Origin: Acidobacteriota bacterium
Lineage (GTDB): Bacteria > Acidobacteriota > UBA6911
Direction of reading: 5' to 3'
Assembly: GCA_963664705.1 (NCBI GenBank)
Contig: OY761556.1
Location: 6,720,001-6,784,000, forward strand
Length of the DNA stretch: 64,000 nt
Positions within the stretch are counted from its first letter, which is position 1. Each line of letters opens with the position of its first letter. Below are positions 36,503 to 54,538 of the stretch, piece after piece. The position numbers and the translations under genes were made by a program. The notes under the pieces were generated by a model, which did no database searches, was not told the DNA's origin, and saw only the letters and a program-made list of their open reading frames with translations.

Positions 36503-36952
36503 ATGATCGTAAGAATGATTACTGGTCTCGCTTTTATGCTTTTGATTGTGAATGTACCGGGAGTTCGCTCCGAACAGTCCGGATCCTACGTGGGATCGGA
36601 AAAATGTGCGCCCTGCCATTCTGATCTTAATGACACCTGGAAGACTACACGCCACGCCAAGGCCATCGAAAGCCTGAAAAAATCGGGGCAGGAAAAATTG
36701 CCCGCGTGCGTGAAATGCCACGTCACAGGCTTTGAAAAAGACGGCGGCTTTATCGATTATGAGCTGACACCTGAGATGGCCGGTGTTCAGTGTGAAGTCT
36801 GCCACGGTCCGGGCAGCGCGCATATTGCCGGGCCCTCGGCCAAAAATATTACAAAGGATCCAGGGGCTGCCTTGTGCCGGCAGTGTCACACCCAGGGCCA
36901 GGATCCCGGATTCAACTATGAAGTCAAAGTCAAGAGTGTGCATGGCAAGTAG
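36503..36952 (+). CDS. tetraheme c-type cytochrome (c554-like)
   Basis: Four CxxCH motifs (CAPCH, CVKCH, CEVCH, CRQCH); YVGSEKC and GVQCEVCHGPGSAH; signal peptide. Confidence 0.92.
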   Translation: MIVRMITGLAFMLLIVNVPGVRSEQSGSYVGSEKCAPCHSDLNDTWKTTRHAKAIESLKKSGQEKLPACVKCHVTGFEKDGGFIDYELTPEMAGVQCEVCHGPGSAHIAGPSAKNITKDPGAALCRQCHTQGQDPGFNYEVKVKSVHGK

Positions 36953-37003
36953 GCTGCAAAGAGAAGCATCCCGAGGATGCACAATGGAAAGGGGAAATGT
37001 TTT

Positions 37004-37747
37004 ATGAAAGGTGGAAAAGCCATGTCGGCCTTGGGGCGTGTCCTCTGGGTTGGTCTGATCTTTGCCGGACTGTCCTGTGCTTATGGCACTGCGGCGGAAG
37101 GCTTTCTCAAAGCAACGCCGGAACAGCTCGATACCGGGACGGTTCCGGAAGGGAAAACGATTGAAGTCGTGGTCAGCGTCCAGAATGTCTCGAAATCGCC
37201 GATCGAAATTACCAGCGTGCGGACCAGTTGAGCATGCACCGAAGCTATGCTTGGAAAGCATACACTCAACCCGAACGAAAAAACCGATCTCAAAGTAGTC
37301 TATCCGACCGCCGGACGGCCCGGGCCATTTGAGAAGAAGATCACTTTTACCACCAATGTCCCCGAGCATGAAAAAGTTGAAATCTTCATGATGAAGGGGG
37401 AAGTCCAGGAAGCGCCCGGAGCAAAAATTGTGGTTCTGCCCCGCAAGGTCGTACTGACCGCCGCCGAACGCAGCGCCGGGAAAAAGCAGTCCTTTGCCAT
37501 CACCAACGAGGGAAGTCTTCCGTTGGTCATCACCTCGATCCGATCCAAGGATGGCAAAAACGTTTACCTGGACGGTTCCAAGGCCGGGAACCTTACGGTG
37601 GAACCGGCGCAGACCAAGAATCTGGAGCTTCAGCTGCCAGGCAACAGCAGCGATAAGGAGGAGAAGGATTATATCCTCTTCTTCTCCAACGCCAAAAATG
37701 CCGGCGAATCCGGGCTCTTTGTCATGCTGCAATACCAGGCGCCGTAA
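37004..37747 (+). CDS. DUF1573-like exported selenoprotein (247 aa; Sec at TGA 37229-37231, motif TS-U-ACT)
   Basis: ORFs 36977..37231 and 37247..37747 are in the same frame; TGA falls at the first Cys of the family xSCGCT motif; SECIS-like hairpin follows. Confidence 0.8.
37246..37262 (+). promoter_or_regulatory. SECIS-like hairpin
   Basis: TATGCTT-GGA-AAGCATA perfect 7-bp stem; G-led loop 21 nt after UGA. Confidence 0.7.
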
Positions 37748-37960
37748 TGCATCGATGACGGGTGGAATTTGTGGCTCTGCAAGGCGGACAGCCACGAATT
37801 CCACCCGTTTCCATTTTCAGCCAAAACCTTCGTCGATAGTTGTTTCCAGCGCACAGCCAATCAACCGTGTCCTGTCCTGCTCCAAGATTCCGCGCTCCCA
37901 CCCTGGAGATAATTCTTGACCCGTCCCAATGCAATCCCTTACATTGATTATTATAGGATA

Positions 37961-37977: not shown

Positions 37978-38056
37978 AACATACGATGATCGGGCAGTGC
38001 CTTGTGAGGGTGTTGCCTGAATTGAGGGATTAGAAACCTGAATAAGAGGTGCAAGC

Positions 38057-39841
38057 ATGAAGGTTAAGGCAATCAGCATATCGATTGTTTTGATCGCGAG
38101 CTTTTTAGCGGCGGGTGCATGGGCAGCGGATGCGGCGAAAATCGTCGTGATGAATCCGCGGGGCATCCAGCCTGAAATCCGCAAGATTCCGATGGCAAAA
38201 CGCCAGGCGACGCTCGACGACAAAACAGTCTACATCGTAGATACGAAATACCCGAACACGAAACCTTTCGTTGAAGCGCTGCTTGCGGCGCTGAAAGCCA
38301 AGTATCCGAAGACCACGTGGGTGGTGAAGGAAAAGCTCGGCGGATACATGGATGATGATCCGGCGCTGTGGAAGGAAACCAAAGAGAAAGCCGCCGCTGC
38401 CATCGTCCTGGTGGGGCATTGAAGCAGCTGCTCGCCGGCAGTTGTCGGCCATGCAGTGACACTGGAAAGAATGGGCATCCCCGCGGTACCGATGATCACA
38501 GCGCGTTTCAAAGAGCTGGTAACGACGATCTCGTACAAAAAAGGGATTCCGAACATGCGGATCACCTATACGCCGCATCCCATCACCGACAGACCCCGGG
38601 ATCTTTGCGACAAGTATGTGCAGGGCAACGATCCGAACAGCGGCCAGCCGATGCTGGAGCAGATCTATGGAGCGCTGACGAAGCCTCTGTCGGCGGAAGA
38701 CGCCAAAGCCGGCTTCCTCAAGCGAGATGCGCGCCCGAGGCTGTTGCCTCCGGACACGCCGGAAAACCTGCTGGAATACTTCCACGAACACGTCTTCACC
38801 GACGGCAACCCGATCATTCTCCCGACCGAACAGAAGGTGGCGGAAATGCTGAAAGCCACCAGCCGCAAGCCGGATGAATGGGTCGGCCAGATGCGTCCCT
38901 CTCCTCCCCATGAAGCCTGGTACTACACGGTGGAAATGGTCGCCGTGAATGCCGTCATGGCGGGAGCCAAACCGGAATACTTCCCCACGATCCTGGCGAT
39001 TGCCTCCAAGGGTTTGACCTCGATGTTCAGTTCGACTTCGTCGTTTGCCCGCATGGTCGTCGTCAACGGCCCGGTGGTGAAGGAAATCGGCATGAACACC
39101 AGCATCGGAGCACTGGGTCCGAACAACCGGGCCAACTCCTCCATCGGCCGCTGCTGGACGCTGATCTCCAAGAACCTCGGCGGATCCGGGAAACCGGGAG
39201 AAACCTACCTGGGCAGCCAGGGGAACCAGTTGAACTACAACAACCTCTGCTTCCCGGAAACGGAAGAAGGGTTGCCGGCAGGATGGAATCCGTTGTCGGT
39301 ACAGAAGGGTTTCAAGAAGTCCGACAGCGTGGTCAGCCTGTTCAGCGGCTGGAGCTTCAACGATATCGCCTGGTACTCGCCGCTGCCGCAGCATGAAGTC
39401 ATCCGCGGCTGGCTGGAACATTTCTTCTCGTTCGGGACGACGCAGGCAACACTGGTGCTCGATCCGATTGTGGCGGCCGACGTAGCGAACATCGGTCACT
39501 TTGCGACGAAGGAAGCCTTTGCCAAATGGCTGGCAGACAACACCGGGACCCCTGGCTGGCTGTACTGGTCGCAGAATGCCGATGCGCTGAAGCAGGCGAA
39601 GGATGGCGTGGAGCCCTATGCCACCTGGTACAAACAGGGCATGGGCGCCGTGGTGCCGGCTTCCCGCTATAAACGCGATGGTGCGGTGCCGGCGAGGAAC
39701 ACATCATTCATGGCCTCGAAGGACAGCGGCGAGCCGACCAATTCGCTCGAAATCGTGGTAACCGGCGGCGGGACGAACACGTTCTGGTCAGGCGGCGATT
39801 TCGGCTATGCGGGCAGCGCTTCCGTGGATCTCTGGAGATAG
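38057..39841 (+). CDS. exported UGSC-type selenoprotein 1 (594 aa; Sec122 at TGA 38420-38422, motif GH-U-SSC)
   Basis: ORFs 38057..38422 and 38456..39841 are in frame with no other stop between; signal peptide; TDGNPIILPT and VAVNAVMAG domain. Confidence 0.9.
38434..38449 (+). promoter_or_regulatory. SECIS-like hairpin
   Basis: GCCGGC-AGTT-GTCGGC beginning 11 nt after UGA; lower stem CTGC/GCAG. Confidence 0.75.
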
Positions 39842-39854
39842 GAGGAACGATCAC

Positions 39855-40421
39855 ATGAAAAACAGATTAATGATAGCTGCAATGGCGCTGTTGGGATTGG
39901 TCGCATGCCTCCAGCCTGTCATGGCGCAGGAGAACACGCCCACGAATCCGGTTGCCGTAAAGGTGCCGCTGAAATCGATGGTCGAACTCGGGTCGGTGTA
40001 TACCAACATCTATGACATCACGATCACGGTACTTGAAACTGTTCGCGGCAATGCGGCGCTTGAACAGCTCAAGGCGGCGGATCCGAATGTCAAGGCGCCG
40101 GCAGCGGGCTTTGATTACGTGCTGGCACGCGTCAAGTTCGAACTCAAGGGGCGCTATGTCAGCGACAACCTGTCGTTTGATCTCGGAACCGAACCGCTGC
40201 AGTGGGTTTTGCTGTCGGGCGCGGATCTGACGGAATATGACCGGGTATCACTGACGGTTCCCAAGCCTGCGCTGGCAGGCATTGTGAAACCCGGCGGTTC
40301 GATGGAAGGCTGGGTGGGCTTTGCCGTTTCTCAGAAAGACGCCAAGCCGGTGATGGTATTTGATCCGGATACCGGCGGCGCCACCGGGCGCGGCAAAACT
40401 CTCTTCTTCAAGTTGTATTAG
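39855..40421 (+). CDS. exported DUF4352-like (Ig-like) partner protein 1
   Basis: Signal peptide; ITVLETVRG..PAAGFDYVLARVKFE..GGSMEGWVGF; paralogue of 45647..46180. Confidence 0.75.
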   Translation: MKNRLMIAAMALLGLVACLQPVMAQENTPTNPVAVKVPLKSMVELGSVYTNIYDITITVLETVRGNAALEQLKAADPNVKAPAAGFDYVLARVKFELKGRYVSDNLSFDLGTEPLQWVLLSGADLTEYDRVSLTVPKPALAGIVKPGGSMEGWVGFAVSQKDAKPVMVFDPDTGGATGRGKTLFFKLY

Positions 40422-40438
40422 TAGATAAACTGAAAGGG

Positions 40439-43912: not shown

Positions 43913-45631
43913 TCATCTCCATTTATCGACGGACATGCTGGATGTGTACCGCAGGTTTCCTGCCTGGAAACGCGCCTGTGTCTGGCCGCCCGCGACTACA
44001 ATCGAGATATCCTCTTTTCTGAGGAAGCGAGGGATCATGGCGTCATCCGGAAGCTTGAACCAGGAAGCAAAGGGCTCGACTCCCTTTTGAGCGCGAGGCA
44101 GATCAAAGGTGAGGATAAAGCTCTCATCCTTGTAGTCGCGCACAGAGTGTACGGCCTTGGTGTAGAGCCAGTCGATGAGCTTCTCTTTGTTGTTGTAGCC
44201 TTGCTCCTTCAGAGCTTTGGCGATGAGGGGGTCGCAAACGACCGTGGCTCCGAACATGCCGGTAAAATTATTGATCACGCTAAGAAACTGCTCGTCATAG
44301 CGTGGCTTCACCGAGATGCCGCCTCCTTTCGCCACCTGGCCCGGCACGATCCCCAAGCCTGTGAAAATGCTGATGACGCTTTCTTCCGGTTTATAGCCGA
44401 GCTGGACGCTCAGTGAATTCCACGGACTGTCCGCTTCGTTTTCGGCTATGACCAGGTTGTTGTAGTTGAGATTGTTCCCGGTGGAACCGAGGTACGTTTC
44501 CCCTGCGATTCCTCCGCCGGCCAGGTTCCTGGACATTATTGTCCAGGCTCGCCCGATCGTTGCATTGGCCTGGCTGAAAGGTCCCAATGCGCCGACCCCA
44601 TAATGCATCTTTATCTGGTCGCGGATAGGACCATTGACTACGACAGAGTAGACAAAAGAATTGGTGGAGCTGTAGAGCGAGGCCTGTCCATTGGCGGCCA
44701 GCGCCAGGATAACGGGGAAGTACTCCGGTTTTGCTCCTGCCATGACGGCATTGGCGGCCACCTGTTCCACGGTGTATTCCCACGGGTCAAAGGCGCCCCC
44801 CGCCATTCTTCCCACAACCTCTTCGGGACGATGGCTGGTTCCTTTCAGCATGGCTGAGACTTTTGCTTCGGTGGGCAGGACAACCGGGATGTAGTCGGTC
44901 ATTCCGCTGTCGATGAAGTTTTGCTGCAGCCGATCGGCCGTGTCCGGTGCGAGCAGCCTTGGATTTGGAGACGGCTTCAGGAATCCGGTTTTCTTTTCTT
45001 CTTCCGTAAGCGGTTTGGTCAGGGCACTGAGGATCTCCTGCATTACCGGTGTGCCCGTGACCGGATCGTTGCCTTCGATGTCACGACGCATTTCCTGGGC
45101 TGTTTTGCCAAAAACGGGGTGAGGAACAAACGTAAACCGCTCGCCCGGCATGCCTCGTTTATAGGCGTTGCCTTTAGCCAGCGCAACAAAACTCCTGGTA
45201 ACGATAGGCGCAGTGGGTTTGCCGAGCTTTTCCAGTTCGAGGCAATGGCCGACGACCGCCGGCGTGCAGGTGCTTCAATGCCCGATTGCCATTACCACTG
45301 CATCCCCCTTTTGCCGGATTTCCTCCCACAACTGCGGATCGTTTTCCGCATAGGCACCTGCCTTCTGCCGGAATTCGAGTTTTACCTTGGGCCTGTTAGT
45401 GGAAAACCAGGACATCATTTCCTTCAGGAATGTATCCGCGCCGACGTAGCGTACATCCACGAAGTAGACGGTCTTGCCGTCCAGTGTGTCGAGGCGCGGC
45501 GCCATCGGGACCAGCCGGATAGGCGGCGGCGTTCCTTTCGGGTTCAGGACTGTTATCTTGGGTTCCTGCGCCCTTAGGGAAGAAAAGCTGAGTGCCAGTA
45601 ATGCTGCGATCAATACTTTCCTGAGATGCAT
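43913..45631 (-). CDS. exported UGSC-type selenoprotein 2 (572 aa; Sec119 at TGA 45277-45275, motif GH-U-STC)
   Basis: ORFs 45275..45631 and 43913..45151 are in frame; the 41 intervening codons (STCTPAVVGHCLELEKLGKPTAPIVT...) are open and homologous to paralogue 1. Confidence 0.9.
45248..45263 (-). promoter_or_regulatory. SECIS-like hairpin
   Basis: GCCGGC-GGTC-GTCGGC beginning 11 nt after UGA, same stem as 38434-38449. Confidence 0.75.
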
Positions 45632-45646
45632 AAAAACCCCCGTAGA

Positions 45647-46180
45647 TCAGTAAAGACGAAATGCCGGACCCATCCCCGAATGGCTGAGAAGATGGACATC
45701 GGCGTGGAAAGCCATAAAAGGAGTCCGATCGCTCTTTGCTACCAGGAGAACCACCCATCCTTCTGCGATGTCGCCGGAATGCATGACGCGGCCCAATTTC
45801 GGGGATGGCAGAACGGCTGTTGCCGCCGGATATTGAATGGAGCCGTCGGAAGAAAAGGCAATGAACTGGTCTTCATTCAACGGGTAGAGCTTGTCTCCCG
45901 GTTTCCCTCTTTCCCGGTATTCGAACCGGATGCGTGCGAGTACGTACTCAAGTCCTGCCGGAGGTTGCGTGTTTGAAGCGCTTTCCTTTTTTAGCAGGTC
46001 CCATGCTTTTTCCCCGCGTCGCATTTCGACCAGTGTGATCCTGGCATCATAAGCCTCCATCGCATTGGCGTAGGCATCGCCAAAAGTGATGACGGTGGAA
46101 GCGGGCGTCCCGATCGGATGGGGATCCATGATGCCCGGAAAGGAAAACAGAAAGAAGAAGATCGAGTATAGATGGTTCAC
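45647..46180 (-). CDS. exported DUF4352-like partner protein 2
   Basis: ITLVEMRRG..PPAGLEYVLARIRFE..GDIAEGWVVL; stops 15 nt before selenoprotein 2. Confidence 0.75.
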   Translation of the reverse strand: MNHLYSIFFFLFSFPGIMDPHPIGTPASTVITFGDAYANAMEAYDARITLVEMRRGEKAWDLLKKESASNTQPPAGLEYVLARIRFEYRERGKPGDKLYPLNEDQFIAFSSDGSIQYPAATAVLPSPKLGRVMHSGDIAEGWVVLLVAKSDRTPFMAFHADVHLLSHSGMGPAFRLY

Positions 46181-52294: not shown

Positions 52295-52717
52295 GTGAAG
52301 AAAAACATAGTTTGTATTGCAGGCAGTTTGTTGTTGGCATGGCTTGTCGTGTCCGGTATCAGCGCCGCGGCCCAGGGATCTGTGCCCCGCATCAGCATCC
52401 AGGAATTAAAAAAGATGATGGATAGCGGGAAGCCGGTCACGATTATCGATGCGCAACCCAAGGATGTTTATAAAGAAGGACACATCAAAGGGGCGATCTC
52501 TTTGCCATGGAGATCCCAGATACCTTTGGAGGATGTGTGGAATATCCCCAAGGACAATCCCATCGTTACCTATTGTGATTGCGGGCCGGGCGAATCGGAT
52601 AGCGCGGATGTTGCGGCTCAGCTGATCCAATACGGTTACGATGATGTTAAAGTACTGGGAGATCCTTCCATTAAGGGCTGGAAACAGGCGGGCTATCCAA
52701 TGGAGAAGGGCAAATAA
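52295..52717 (+). CDS. exported rhodanese-like protein
   Basis: Signal peptide; IIDAQ, GHIKGAISLP, IVTYCDCG and GWKQAGYP motifs. Confidence 0.88.
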   Translation: MKKNIVCIAGSLLLAWLVVSGISAAAQGSVPRISIQELKKMMDSGKPVTIIDAQPKDVYKEGHIKGAISLPWRSQIPLEDVWNIPKDNPIVTYCDCGPGESDSADVAAQLIQYGYDDVKVLGDPSIKGWKQAGYPMEKGK

Positions 52718-52855: not shown

Positions 52856-54538
52856 ATGCGGAAGATTGTTATGGTGACAATCATGATGGCGATCGCCGTC
52901 ATGTTTGTACACGTTCCATACAAAGCTCCACTGATTGCTAAGGACGCTCCTCAGCAGTTCGAGGTGCTGAGTCCGTGGGCAGAAGTGGATCCGATACCCC
53001 TGAGGGGGGTATCGCCAAGATTGGATACGATAAAGGGCAAAAAGATTGGATTGTTCGCCAATTTCAAACGTGCGGCCAAGCCCATTGCCGATGAGATTGA
53101 CAAGCAGCTGAAGGCCAAATATCCCGATATCCAGACCAGCCTTTTCCATTCCACTTTGCCCAATGTGAATGAGGCGGAGACCGTCAATAAGGAAAAGTTT
53201 GCTGCCTGGGCCAAGGGAGTTGATGCCGTCATCGGCGTGGTGGGAGATTGAGGGTCCTGCACAAAGTTCCTCGCTTACAACGGAGTTGCAATCGAGGACT
53301 TTGGCAAGCCGGTCGTGATACTGGCTAATCGCGGTTTCGTAACAGACGCTCACTCTGCTGCTTCCGGTAAGGGCCTTCCTGGCCTTCGTGTTGTTGGGGA
53401 AACTATTGCCTGCGAATCCACTGTTGCTTCCGACATCGAGTCCGGTGTCAGAGGTTCATTGGACGAGGCTATTGCTGCCCTGACCAAACCATTAACGCCT
53501 GAAGAAAAATCTCCACAGGTTAATACGGAGAAACCTCCCACCATCATCTTCAAGGGAAGCCTGGAAGATGTGAACCAGTTCTTCTATCGCAAAGGATGGA
53601 CGGATGGCCTGCCAGTCTTCGCACCCACAGAGGAAGCTGTGGCGGAGATGATGAAGGGCACGGATCTGCCTGCGGATCATATGGTGGCCAAAATCATTCC
53701 GCGCATGGGCAAGGCTACAATCAAGAAGATTGCCGTAAATGCCGTAATGGCGGGTGCACTGCCTATCCACATGCCGGTTCTGATTGCAGCCGTCGAGGCT
53801 CTTTCGGATAAGAAGACCCGGTTTGATACCTTTGAGGTAAGCACAGGTTCATGGTCTCCTATGTTTATTATCAATGGTCAGATCCGGAAGGATATTCACA
53901 TCAACTGCAGTTCAGGCGCTCTCAGCCCCGGGAACATGGCCAATTCGGTTATTGGGCGTGCCGTGGGTTTGATCGTTAAGAACATCGGCGGTGCCCGCAA
54001 GGGCGTCGAAGATATGGGGACTATCGGAAACCCCGGCAAGTACTCCCTTGTTCTCGGCGAAAATGAAGAAGAAAGCCCGTGGGCTCCGTTGAGCGTCGAT
54101 CGTGGCTTTAAAAAAGAAGACAACACATTGACGGTTTTCTTCCCGAACAACTTCGGACTGGCAATTCCCTCCGCCACCAGCGCGCAGGGTATTGCGGACG
54201 GTCTGGTTTCCATGCAGATGCGTTCCCTGTCGGCGCTGGTTGTGATTCCTGATCACGCCAGGATTCTTGCCAATGAAGGGTGGACGAAGGAAAAGGTAAA
54301 AGAATACATCGCTCAAAAGACACCTGCCGGACCGAATACGCGAAGCCGCTCGGTTGGATTGAAAACCGAGGATTTCGTTCTTGTGGTTGCCGGCGGTCCG
54401 GGCACCTGGATGGGTGCTTACCGGAGTGCTGGTGGTTTTGAGAATGAATTTGTATCAAGAAAGATCCAGCTTCCCAAGAACTGGGATGCGCTGGTAGCCA
54501 AGTATAAGAACCTGGTTCCTGTATACGAGAAGTACTAG
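52856..54538 (+). CDS. UGSC-type selenoprotein 3, probably exported (560 aa; Sec132 at TGA 53249-53251, motif GD-U-GSC)
   Basis: ORFs 52856..53251 and 53315..54538 are in frame; intervening GSCTKFLAYNGVAIEDFGKPV is open; GWTDGLPVFAPT and IAVNAVMAG domain. Confidence 0.92.
53262..53303 (+). promoter_or_regulatory. SECIS-like hairpin
   Basis: Lower stem CAAAGTTCCTCG/CGAGGACTTTG with one bulged U; upper stem CAAC-GGA-GTTG; loop 30 nt after UGA. Confidence 0.72.

Follow-up and report, generated by a model that had tools for sequence, protein, structure and literature searches.

The protein family DUF1573 (OS_HP2) has been listed as a selenoprotein family since 2007 in the accessible parts of the respective publications (PMC1976440, PMC2398784, PMC9312934, PMC13188914). 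It is a large family with 6872 clusters at 50% identity, and in those parts neither a function nor a partner is given for it. In the open-access article texts that were searched, neither a function nor a cytochrome partner was found for DUF1573, PF07610 or the UshA-like selenoproteins, and in PMC10434189 DUF1573 is present as a table row devoid of functional content. According to the accessible text of two further reports, cytochrome c554 contains a penta-coordinated heme, and heme 2 is the open active site in both c554 and OcwA (10.1101/641308, PMC9250108). The openly available portion of a report on MccSep describes a selenocysteine (Sec) on an Ig-like domain positioned at heme 2, whose ligands are His/Cys, and the reduction of polysulfide (PMC13510729).

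The locus described here was found in a window of 64,000 nucleotides (the whole stretch of DNA that was analysed), which lies in a one-contig 6.9-Mb genome of an Acidobacteriota bacterium. A gene for an exported, stand-alone c554-type tetraheme cytochrome c (36503..36952, + strand) is followed, after a gap of 51 bases, by a DUF1573 gene (37004..37747, + strand). The original prediction had placed a cytochrome with four CxxCH motifs directly before the DUF1573 gene, with correct coordinates and content. It had also proposed an exported protein read through an in-frame TGA; this TGA was confirmed at 37229..37231 (+ strand), with U76 as the predicted Sec. It was silent on the fact that DUF1573 with Sec is a family catalogued for many years as OS_HP2.

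The DUF1573 gene contains a single in-frame TGA, and reading through it yields a two-domain protein of 247 residues with a signal peptide and the motif U76-A-C78 in domain 1, as judged from Pfam and an alignment of orthologues. The start at 37004 was preferred over the alternative ATGs at 36977 and 37022 because orthologues begin there. The Pfam profile DUF1573 (PF07610) matched residues 37-134 with 84 bits (cut-off 26.1), so that the match runs across the UGA, a point that had been left for checking. A lipoprotein reading was rejected, as Cys25 is not conserved. Searches of PDB sequences with the protein and its alignment gave nothing better than E 0.26, a search of the ESM Atlas returned known families only, and a contig scan of the genome collection with the single DUF1573 protein yielded just two loci. 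Elsewhere in the window genome, at G000:C1:3616421-3616717, a further and distantly related DUF1573 gene also contains an in-frame TGA; its context is different, with no cytochrome among the nearby long ORFs.

A single-sequence structure model of the window protein had a pLDDT of 47.5 and was not used. The model of a Cys orthologue (P0007), based on 67 sequences and with a pLDDT of 92.5, comprises two beta-sandwich domains, and C76-x-C78 is located on a turn between strands 67-74 and 79-83. The fold is ASH/PapD/MSP-like, and the Ig domains of VesB and VesC were retrieved with Z values of about 12 and an rmsd of about 2 Å over 97-98 residues. Two Ig-like repeats had been predicted, which is borne out in the fold by the two domains of the P0007 model. 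BLASTP revealed no similarity between the two halves, and the DUF1573 HMM matched the second half, which is devoid of the CxC motif, only weakly (E 8e-4).

The in-frame UGA takes the place of the first Cys in the family's CxC motif. When 44 homologues were read as DNA, the codon at this position was TGA in 41 and TGC in three cases, and no other codon occurred. The 22 close matches, found in 21 of the 30 genomes of the genus, all have one TGA at this position. A search for Cys variants had been suggested, and such variants exist: in addition to the three TGC codons, all five full-length database hits are Cys orthologues that align a Cys to U76. Six orthologues carry the motif UGC; that of the window protein is U-A-C. 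Cys forms are found at several separate places in a tree of 37 rows, from which 10 near-redundant or partial metagenome rows were left out and the bootstrap of which is not fully settled.

Downstream of the UGA a SECIS hairpin with a 7-bp stem and a 3-nt loop was predicted from covariation (37246..37262, + strand). The loop starts with a G 22 nt after the UGA, which is invariant in 41 of 41 sequences. Across 38 distinct rows the stem was paired in 98.1% of 266 cells, and four of the seven pairs change on both sides. None of 500 shuffles reached this level, and versions slid along the alignment were paired in 18-60%, a comparison in which the hairpin is favoured by having been derived from the same sequences. 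The hairpin covaries even at sites where the amino acids change thereby. Its folding z-score alone was modest (-1.5 to -2.3). In the three Cys sequences, two of them distinct, one or two of the pairs that vary contained a wobble or mismatch.

The genes selA, selB and selD were each found twice above the cut-off in the window genome, one selD containing an in-frame TGA itself, and thus two apparent sets of the Sec machinery are present, together with hits for tRNA-Sec. A reassigned genetic code was rejected, because TGA is an ordinary stop that ends 737 of 2307 long ORFs in this genome. Taken together, the UGA in the CxC motif of DUF1573 very likely encodes Sec, as had been proposed, and this reading corrects the database annotation, which splits the gene at the UGA.

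The cytochrome has 149 amino acids with a signal-like N-terminus and CxxCH motifs at residues 35, 69, 97 and 125 of the ORF translation. The Pfam profile Cytochrome_C554 (PF13435) matched with 73.5 bits (cut-off 20.8), the closest PDB sequences were OcwA and c554, and the best NCBIfam match was to the C-terminal heme domain of the UshA-like selenoproteins. In an alignment of 27 rows all four CxxCH motifs are invariant, and three further His are conserved, namely His51 and His107 in all rows and His147 in 25 rows. Thus, seven conserved His (four proximal and three additional) are available for four hemes, and one heme is devoid of a conserved His partner. All eight Cys are heme-binding and none is spare. 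Because of these seven His for four hemes and the lack of a spare Cys, the alignment suggests that the cytochrome has an open heme, which the Sec or Cys of a partner could serve, as in MccSep. By homology to c554 the open heme would be heme 2. Alternatively, the fourth axial position might be taken by Met92, which is partly conserved (21 of 27 rows), or by an additional His that is not conserved. Among 120 listed proteins no longer form of the cytochrome with PF07610 was found, a list in which forms split at a Sec codon could not appear.

To characterize the neighbourhoods within the genus, the best DUF1573(U) match per genome was used, which resulted in 21 loci from 21 genomes. The gene directly upstream was the cytochrome in 13 loci, a rhodanese in seven, and a PF04143 sulfur transporter in one (L037), the latter being the one locus devoid of both cytochrome and rhodanese. 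Among 20 close metagenome loci, many of them near kin, the cytochrome was found upstream in 16, and the other four have less than 170 nt of upstream sequence. A second pair of cytochrome and DUF1573(U), with 28-30% identity to that of the window, was present in three genomes in which the main copy has no cytochrome, and a fourth genome (G008) has a second close DUF1573(U) copy preceded by a cytochrome. In locus L034 cytochrome and DUF1573(U) are fused in one open frame; the junction shows about two bases of microhomology and a repeat-driven misassembly is unlikely, yet it is a single case from a draft genome. At five related metagenome loci (L054, L058, L060-L062) a moaE gene was observed upstream of the cytochrome on the opposite strand, which was confirmed with Pfam in L058.

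The stand-alone cytochrome was detected in 18 of the 21 genomes with the DUF1573 gene and in none of the nine genomes without it; the three genomes in which it was not found (G023, G025, G027) are 71, 98 and 81% complete. The nine genus genomes devoid of the pair require at least six changes on the tree of the UshA-like gene, although one deletion can remove adjacent genes together. The observations support that cytochrome and DUF1573(U) form a conserved pair.

Outside the genus the picture was different. In a sample of 251 genomes from the phylum, the tallies of which include one unpublished genome (G083) that no other claim rests on, a multiheme gene was present within 1.5 kb of none of the 30 best DUF1573 loci, and DUF1573 was nearby at one of 27 loci with a c554 domain. 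The pair is thus largely confined to one genus. Because of this low co-occurrence, most DUF1573 proteins of the 6872 clusters seem to work without such a cytochrome. Distant members split at the UGA also exist (P0251, P0255, P0271), with one cluster labelled Thermodesulfobacteriota. Fusions of DUF1573 with a C-terminal diheme cytochrome c were found with Sec (L023, L088) and with Cys (L022, L029, P0331, P0354); the cytochrome is of an unrelated type, and such fusions were seen at four loci from the same class and in two proteins from the databases. The c554-type heme domain in turn is fused to other Cys/Sec dithiol domains, i.e., in the UshA-like proteins, the CGU motif of which is present in 30 of 30 genus genomes, and in P0124 (654 aa), which has two AhpC/TSA (TlpA-like) domains with one CxxC and two c554-type heme domains. 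The combination of a c554-type tetraheme domain with a Cys/Sec dithiol, either in cis or in trans, is therefore a recurring theme.

An exported rhodanese with a Y-C-D-C-G loop is encoded in the window at 52295..52717 (+ strand), as revealed by the Pfam Rhodanese profile and a weak match to the rhodanese-related (seleno)protein NF041203. It is located 15 kb from the DUF1573 gene. In 13 of the 21 genus loci an orthologue of this CxC rhodanese lies at most 1.1 kb upstream of DUF1573(U), and the order rhodanese-cytochrome-DUF1573 was found in six of them. The rhodanese is present in 16 of 21 genomes with the DUF1573 gene and in none of nine without it, and at seven of the 21 loci it occurs without an adjacent cytochrome. 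The rhodanese is thus a third, loosely linked member of the module.

A redox or metal role of UxC, as had been proposed from the Sec substitution, is a reasonable assumption. Our tentative preference, to which we give somewhat less than an even chance, is that the pair forms one periplasmic redox unit, in which U76-x-C78 exchanges electrons with the probably open heme and reduces S-S bonds, with the rhodanese as sulfur shuttle; MccSep provides a precedent. The hemes of the cytochrome would store and pass on electrons, the U-x-C loop of DUF1573 would attack the S-S bond and would then be re-reduced at heme 2, and the co-travelling rhodanese would be the likely shuttle for sulfur. The weakest step is the substrate, which may be a persulfide, a polysulfide or a protein disulfide; sulfane sulfur is suggested because a rhodanese and a PF04143 sulfur transporter are among the neighbours.

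A more specific version, which appears rather unlikely, is that of a split selenium-heme enzyme. DUF1573 would dock on the cytochrome and supply a Cys ligand as well as the catalytic Sec in trans to heme 2, thereby rebuilding a polysulfide- or persulfide-reducing site of the MccSep type, and the CxC rhodanese would be the sulfur carrier. If true, this would be the first function for DUF1573 and, by extension, for the fusions of CxU and tetraheme domains in the UshA-like proteins.

Soft metals are often bound by CxC and UxC motifs located on exposed turns, and in the P0007 model the motif lies on a turn between two strands. The UxC loop might therefore hold a soft metal (Cu, Hg, As or similar), DUF1573 being a metallochaperone or scavenger with an Ig fold; the role of the cytochrome would then be limited to setting the redox state of this site or of its metal. 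The neighbourhoods argue against it: the recurrent neighbours of DUF1573(U) are the cytochrome, the rhodanese, UGSC, AFOR and IclR genes, and no copper or metal-efflux gene was recognised by eye among the 45 neighbour clusters listed. A metal site is thus considered improbable.

The two proteins might also be merely co-regulated, without direct electron exchange. DUF1573 would then be an exported Ig-fold scaffold or folding helper, e.g., for Cys-rich or heme proteins, and its selenylsulfide would be structural or would be recycled by other periplasmic oxidoreductases. This would be in accordance with the ASH/PapD/MSP-like fold, a class of interaction and chaperone domains, with the predominance of CGC in distant DUF1573 members of any context (121 proteins with 154 motif matches, 137 of them CGC), and with the second DUF1573(U) gene of the window genome, which has no cytochrome in its surroundings. 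However, adjacency to the cytochrome persists in paralogues down to 28-30% identity, DUF1573 is fused to cytochromes of two unrelated types, and Sec is seldom retained for a purely structural bond. We regard the scaffold role as doubtful.

The original prediction had suggested another role for the pair, in which it would relay electrons in the periplasm to the UGSC enzymes encoded downstream and thereby return their U-x-x-C site to the reduced state. A gene for a UGSC-domain selenoprotein with the motif U-S-S-C (38057..39841, + strand; Pfam UGSC 98.3 bits) indeed starts 309 bp downstream of the DUF1573 gene. Between the two a strong inverted repeat is located (37758..37808, + strand; 19-bp arms, 95% complementary, -40 kcal/mol), which is likely to be a transcription boundary between the DUF1573 and UGSC genes; it was missed by a terminator scan, the promoter and terminator calls of which were at chance level. 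The UGSC gene and its follower form a cassette of 2370 bp (38056-40425) with 99.4% identity to another copy in the window genome (G000:3995146-3997515). In L051, the closest relative, the cassette is missing at this place and DUF1573 is directly followed by an IclR gene. The downstream UGSC gene is therefore a recent duplicate and probably not part of the module, and its interpretation as an ancient partner was rejected.

Exported selenoproteins and aldehyde oxidoreductases are extremely expanded in the window genome, with 34 UGSC-like and 19 AFOR-like loci, and UGSC hits number at least 8-23 per genome in the genus versus 0-2 in other genera. Further UGSC genes split at a UGA are present in the window at 43913-45631 (- strand) and 52856-54538 (+ strand), the latter directly after the CxC rhodanese. 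The exported protein encoded at 39807-40421 (+ strand) and again at 45647-46180 (- strand) has no match in Pfam or NCBIfam and is found beside a UGSC gene at eight of its nine loci in the genome; as a dedicated partner of UGSC it is more plausible than DUF1573.

Given the 34 UGSC-like loci, the chance of finding one within 6 kb of a random place in the window genome is 6.7%. A UGSC gene was found within 6 kb of DUF1573(U) in 11 of the 21 genus loci, several contigs of which end within 1-5 kb. This proximity was observed at 10 of 13 loci with the rhodanese versus one of eight without it, and at five of 13 loci with the cytochrome versus six of eight without it, and thus the enrichment follows the rhodanese and not the cytochrome. 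Nine genomes of the genus, with at least 8-23 UGSC hits each at a scoring limit of about 21 candidates per genome, have neither a close DUF1573(U) nor the stand-alone cytochrome. The predicted co-occurrence of the pair with UGSC genes was therefore seen as proximity above the base rate, but not as a link to the cytochrome or a requirement: the module lives in a UGSC-rich neighbourhood and is not needed for UGSC genes.

It fits with the relay that cytochrome, DUF1573 and UGSC proteins are all exported, that AFOR genes, possible electron sources, are near five of 21 loci, and that, among 61 genomes searched, neither the close DUF1573(U) family nor the large UGSC expansions occur outside the genus, in addition to the proximity counts. 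Nevertheless, the duplicated cassette, its absence from the closest relative and the nine UGSC-rich genomes without the pair leave it poorly supported, and a UGSC gene was present in only one of seven metagenome loci longer than 5 kb. As a general UGSC partner the UshA-like fusion of CGU and tetraheme domain in 30 of 30 genus genomes fits better. The relay is thus judged very unlikely. The UshA-like gene of the window genome (G000:C1:2412306-2413718) encodes PCGU together with a c554-type tetraheme domain, and it is the sole heme/Sec protein among those tested whose distribution matches the UGSC expansion.

The last alternative, in which translation ends at the UGA and the gene is either a pseudogene or encodes two separate proteins, was rejected as practically negligible: among the 120 database hits listed, 115 are short proteins that begin just after the UGA, but this is how gene callers treat a UGA, and a true stop would cut through the Pfam domain at a position occupied by TGA or TGC alone and is contradicted by the covariation of the hairpin, including at amino-acid-changing sites.

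Returning to the redox unit of cytochrome and DUF1573(U), its two genes can be compared with four described systems. With OS_HP2 the DUF1573 protein shares the Pfam domain PF07610, the Sec at the first Cys of CxC, a SECIS element downstream of the UGA and the existence of Cys homologues. In contrast, the catalogued motif is UGC or UxC versus U-A-C here, and the subfamily of the window has two domains as well as a conserved cytochrome and a rhodanese partner. The NCBIfam profile NF041425 (OS_HP2_seleno) matched the window protein with 49.6 bits, below the cut-off of 100, which was reached in only two of the 251 phylum genomes. Sec-containing DUF1573 is thus an already catalogued family, and the Sec assignment alone is an ordinary correction of a mis-annotation within it; what is new is that a c554-type cytochrome and a rhodanese join it in a module at the level of the genus.

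For the cytochrome, the best family match is the C-terminal tetraheme domain of the UshA-like selenoproteins (NF041198), which it matches with E 5e-37 and about 40% identity to the genome's own copy. A Cys/Sec dithiol is paired with this heme domain in both cases. However, the UshA-like proteins combine the two in a single chain, with CxU located in a phosphoesterase-like domain, whereas here a stand-alone heme domain is combined with an Ig-fold UxC protein. Membership of the cytochrome in the UshA-like family was rejected (127.6 bits versus 275, at profile positions 399-519 only); the true member of the window genome is G000:2412306-2413718. With the c554 of Nitrosomonas europaea (PDB 1BVB/1FT5; PF13435) the cytochrome shares four CxxCH and seven conserved His, and its hemes 1-3 can be aligned, as can the His that follows heme 1 (E 3e-12). 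It differs in length (149 versus 211 aa) and by the absence of an ammonia-oxidation context, and assignment to the Nitrosomonas c554 equivalog (NF043010) was rejected with 67.2 bits versus a cut-off of 400.

The likeness to MccSep/ExtKL of Geobacter sulfurreducens (NF040886; PDB 9WT8) is architectural, i.e., a periplasmic multiheme core combined with a Sec-bearing Ig-like domain, which in MccSep lies near heme 2. The heme part matched weakly (E 7e-4 by profile and 0.12 by single sequence), and this was the only sequence match, no relation in sequence being found between the Ig domain of MccSep and DUF1573. MccSep was not among the matches listed in two fold searches with the P0007 model, which says nothing either way. 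MccSep differs in being a single chain with five hemes, His/Cys239 ligation and a lone U325. Membership in NF040886 was rejected for the window cytochrome, which has four hemes and no spare Cys (15.6 bits versus 250), and no member above the cut-off was detected in the window genome.

The adjacency, the natural fusion and the rhodanese together offer a concrete and testable lead for the orphan family DUF1573. The natural Cys orthologues P0007, P0029 and L053 can be expressed without the Sec machinery, which makes a small, soluble two-protein module accessible to testing. Should S-S bonds be reduced by the pair at an open heme, anaerobic Acidobacteriota would offer a second, modular architecture for the chemistry recently described for MccSep.
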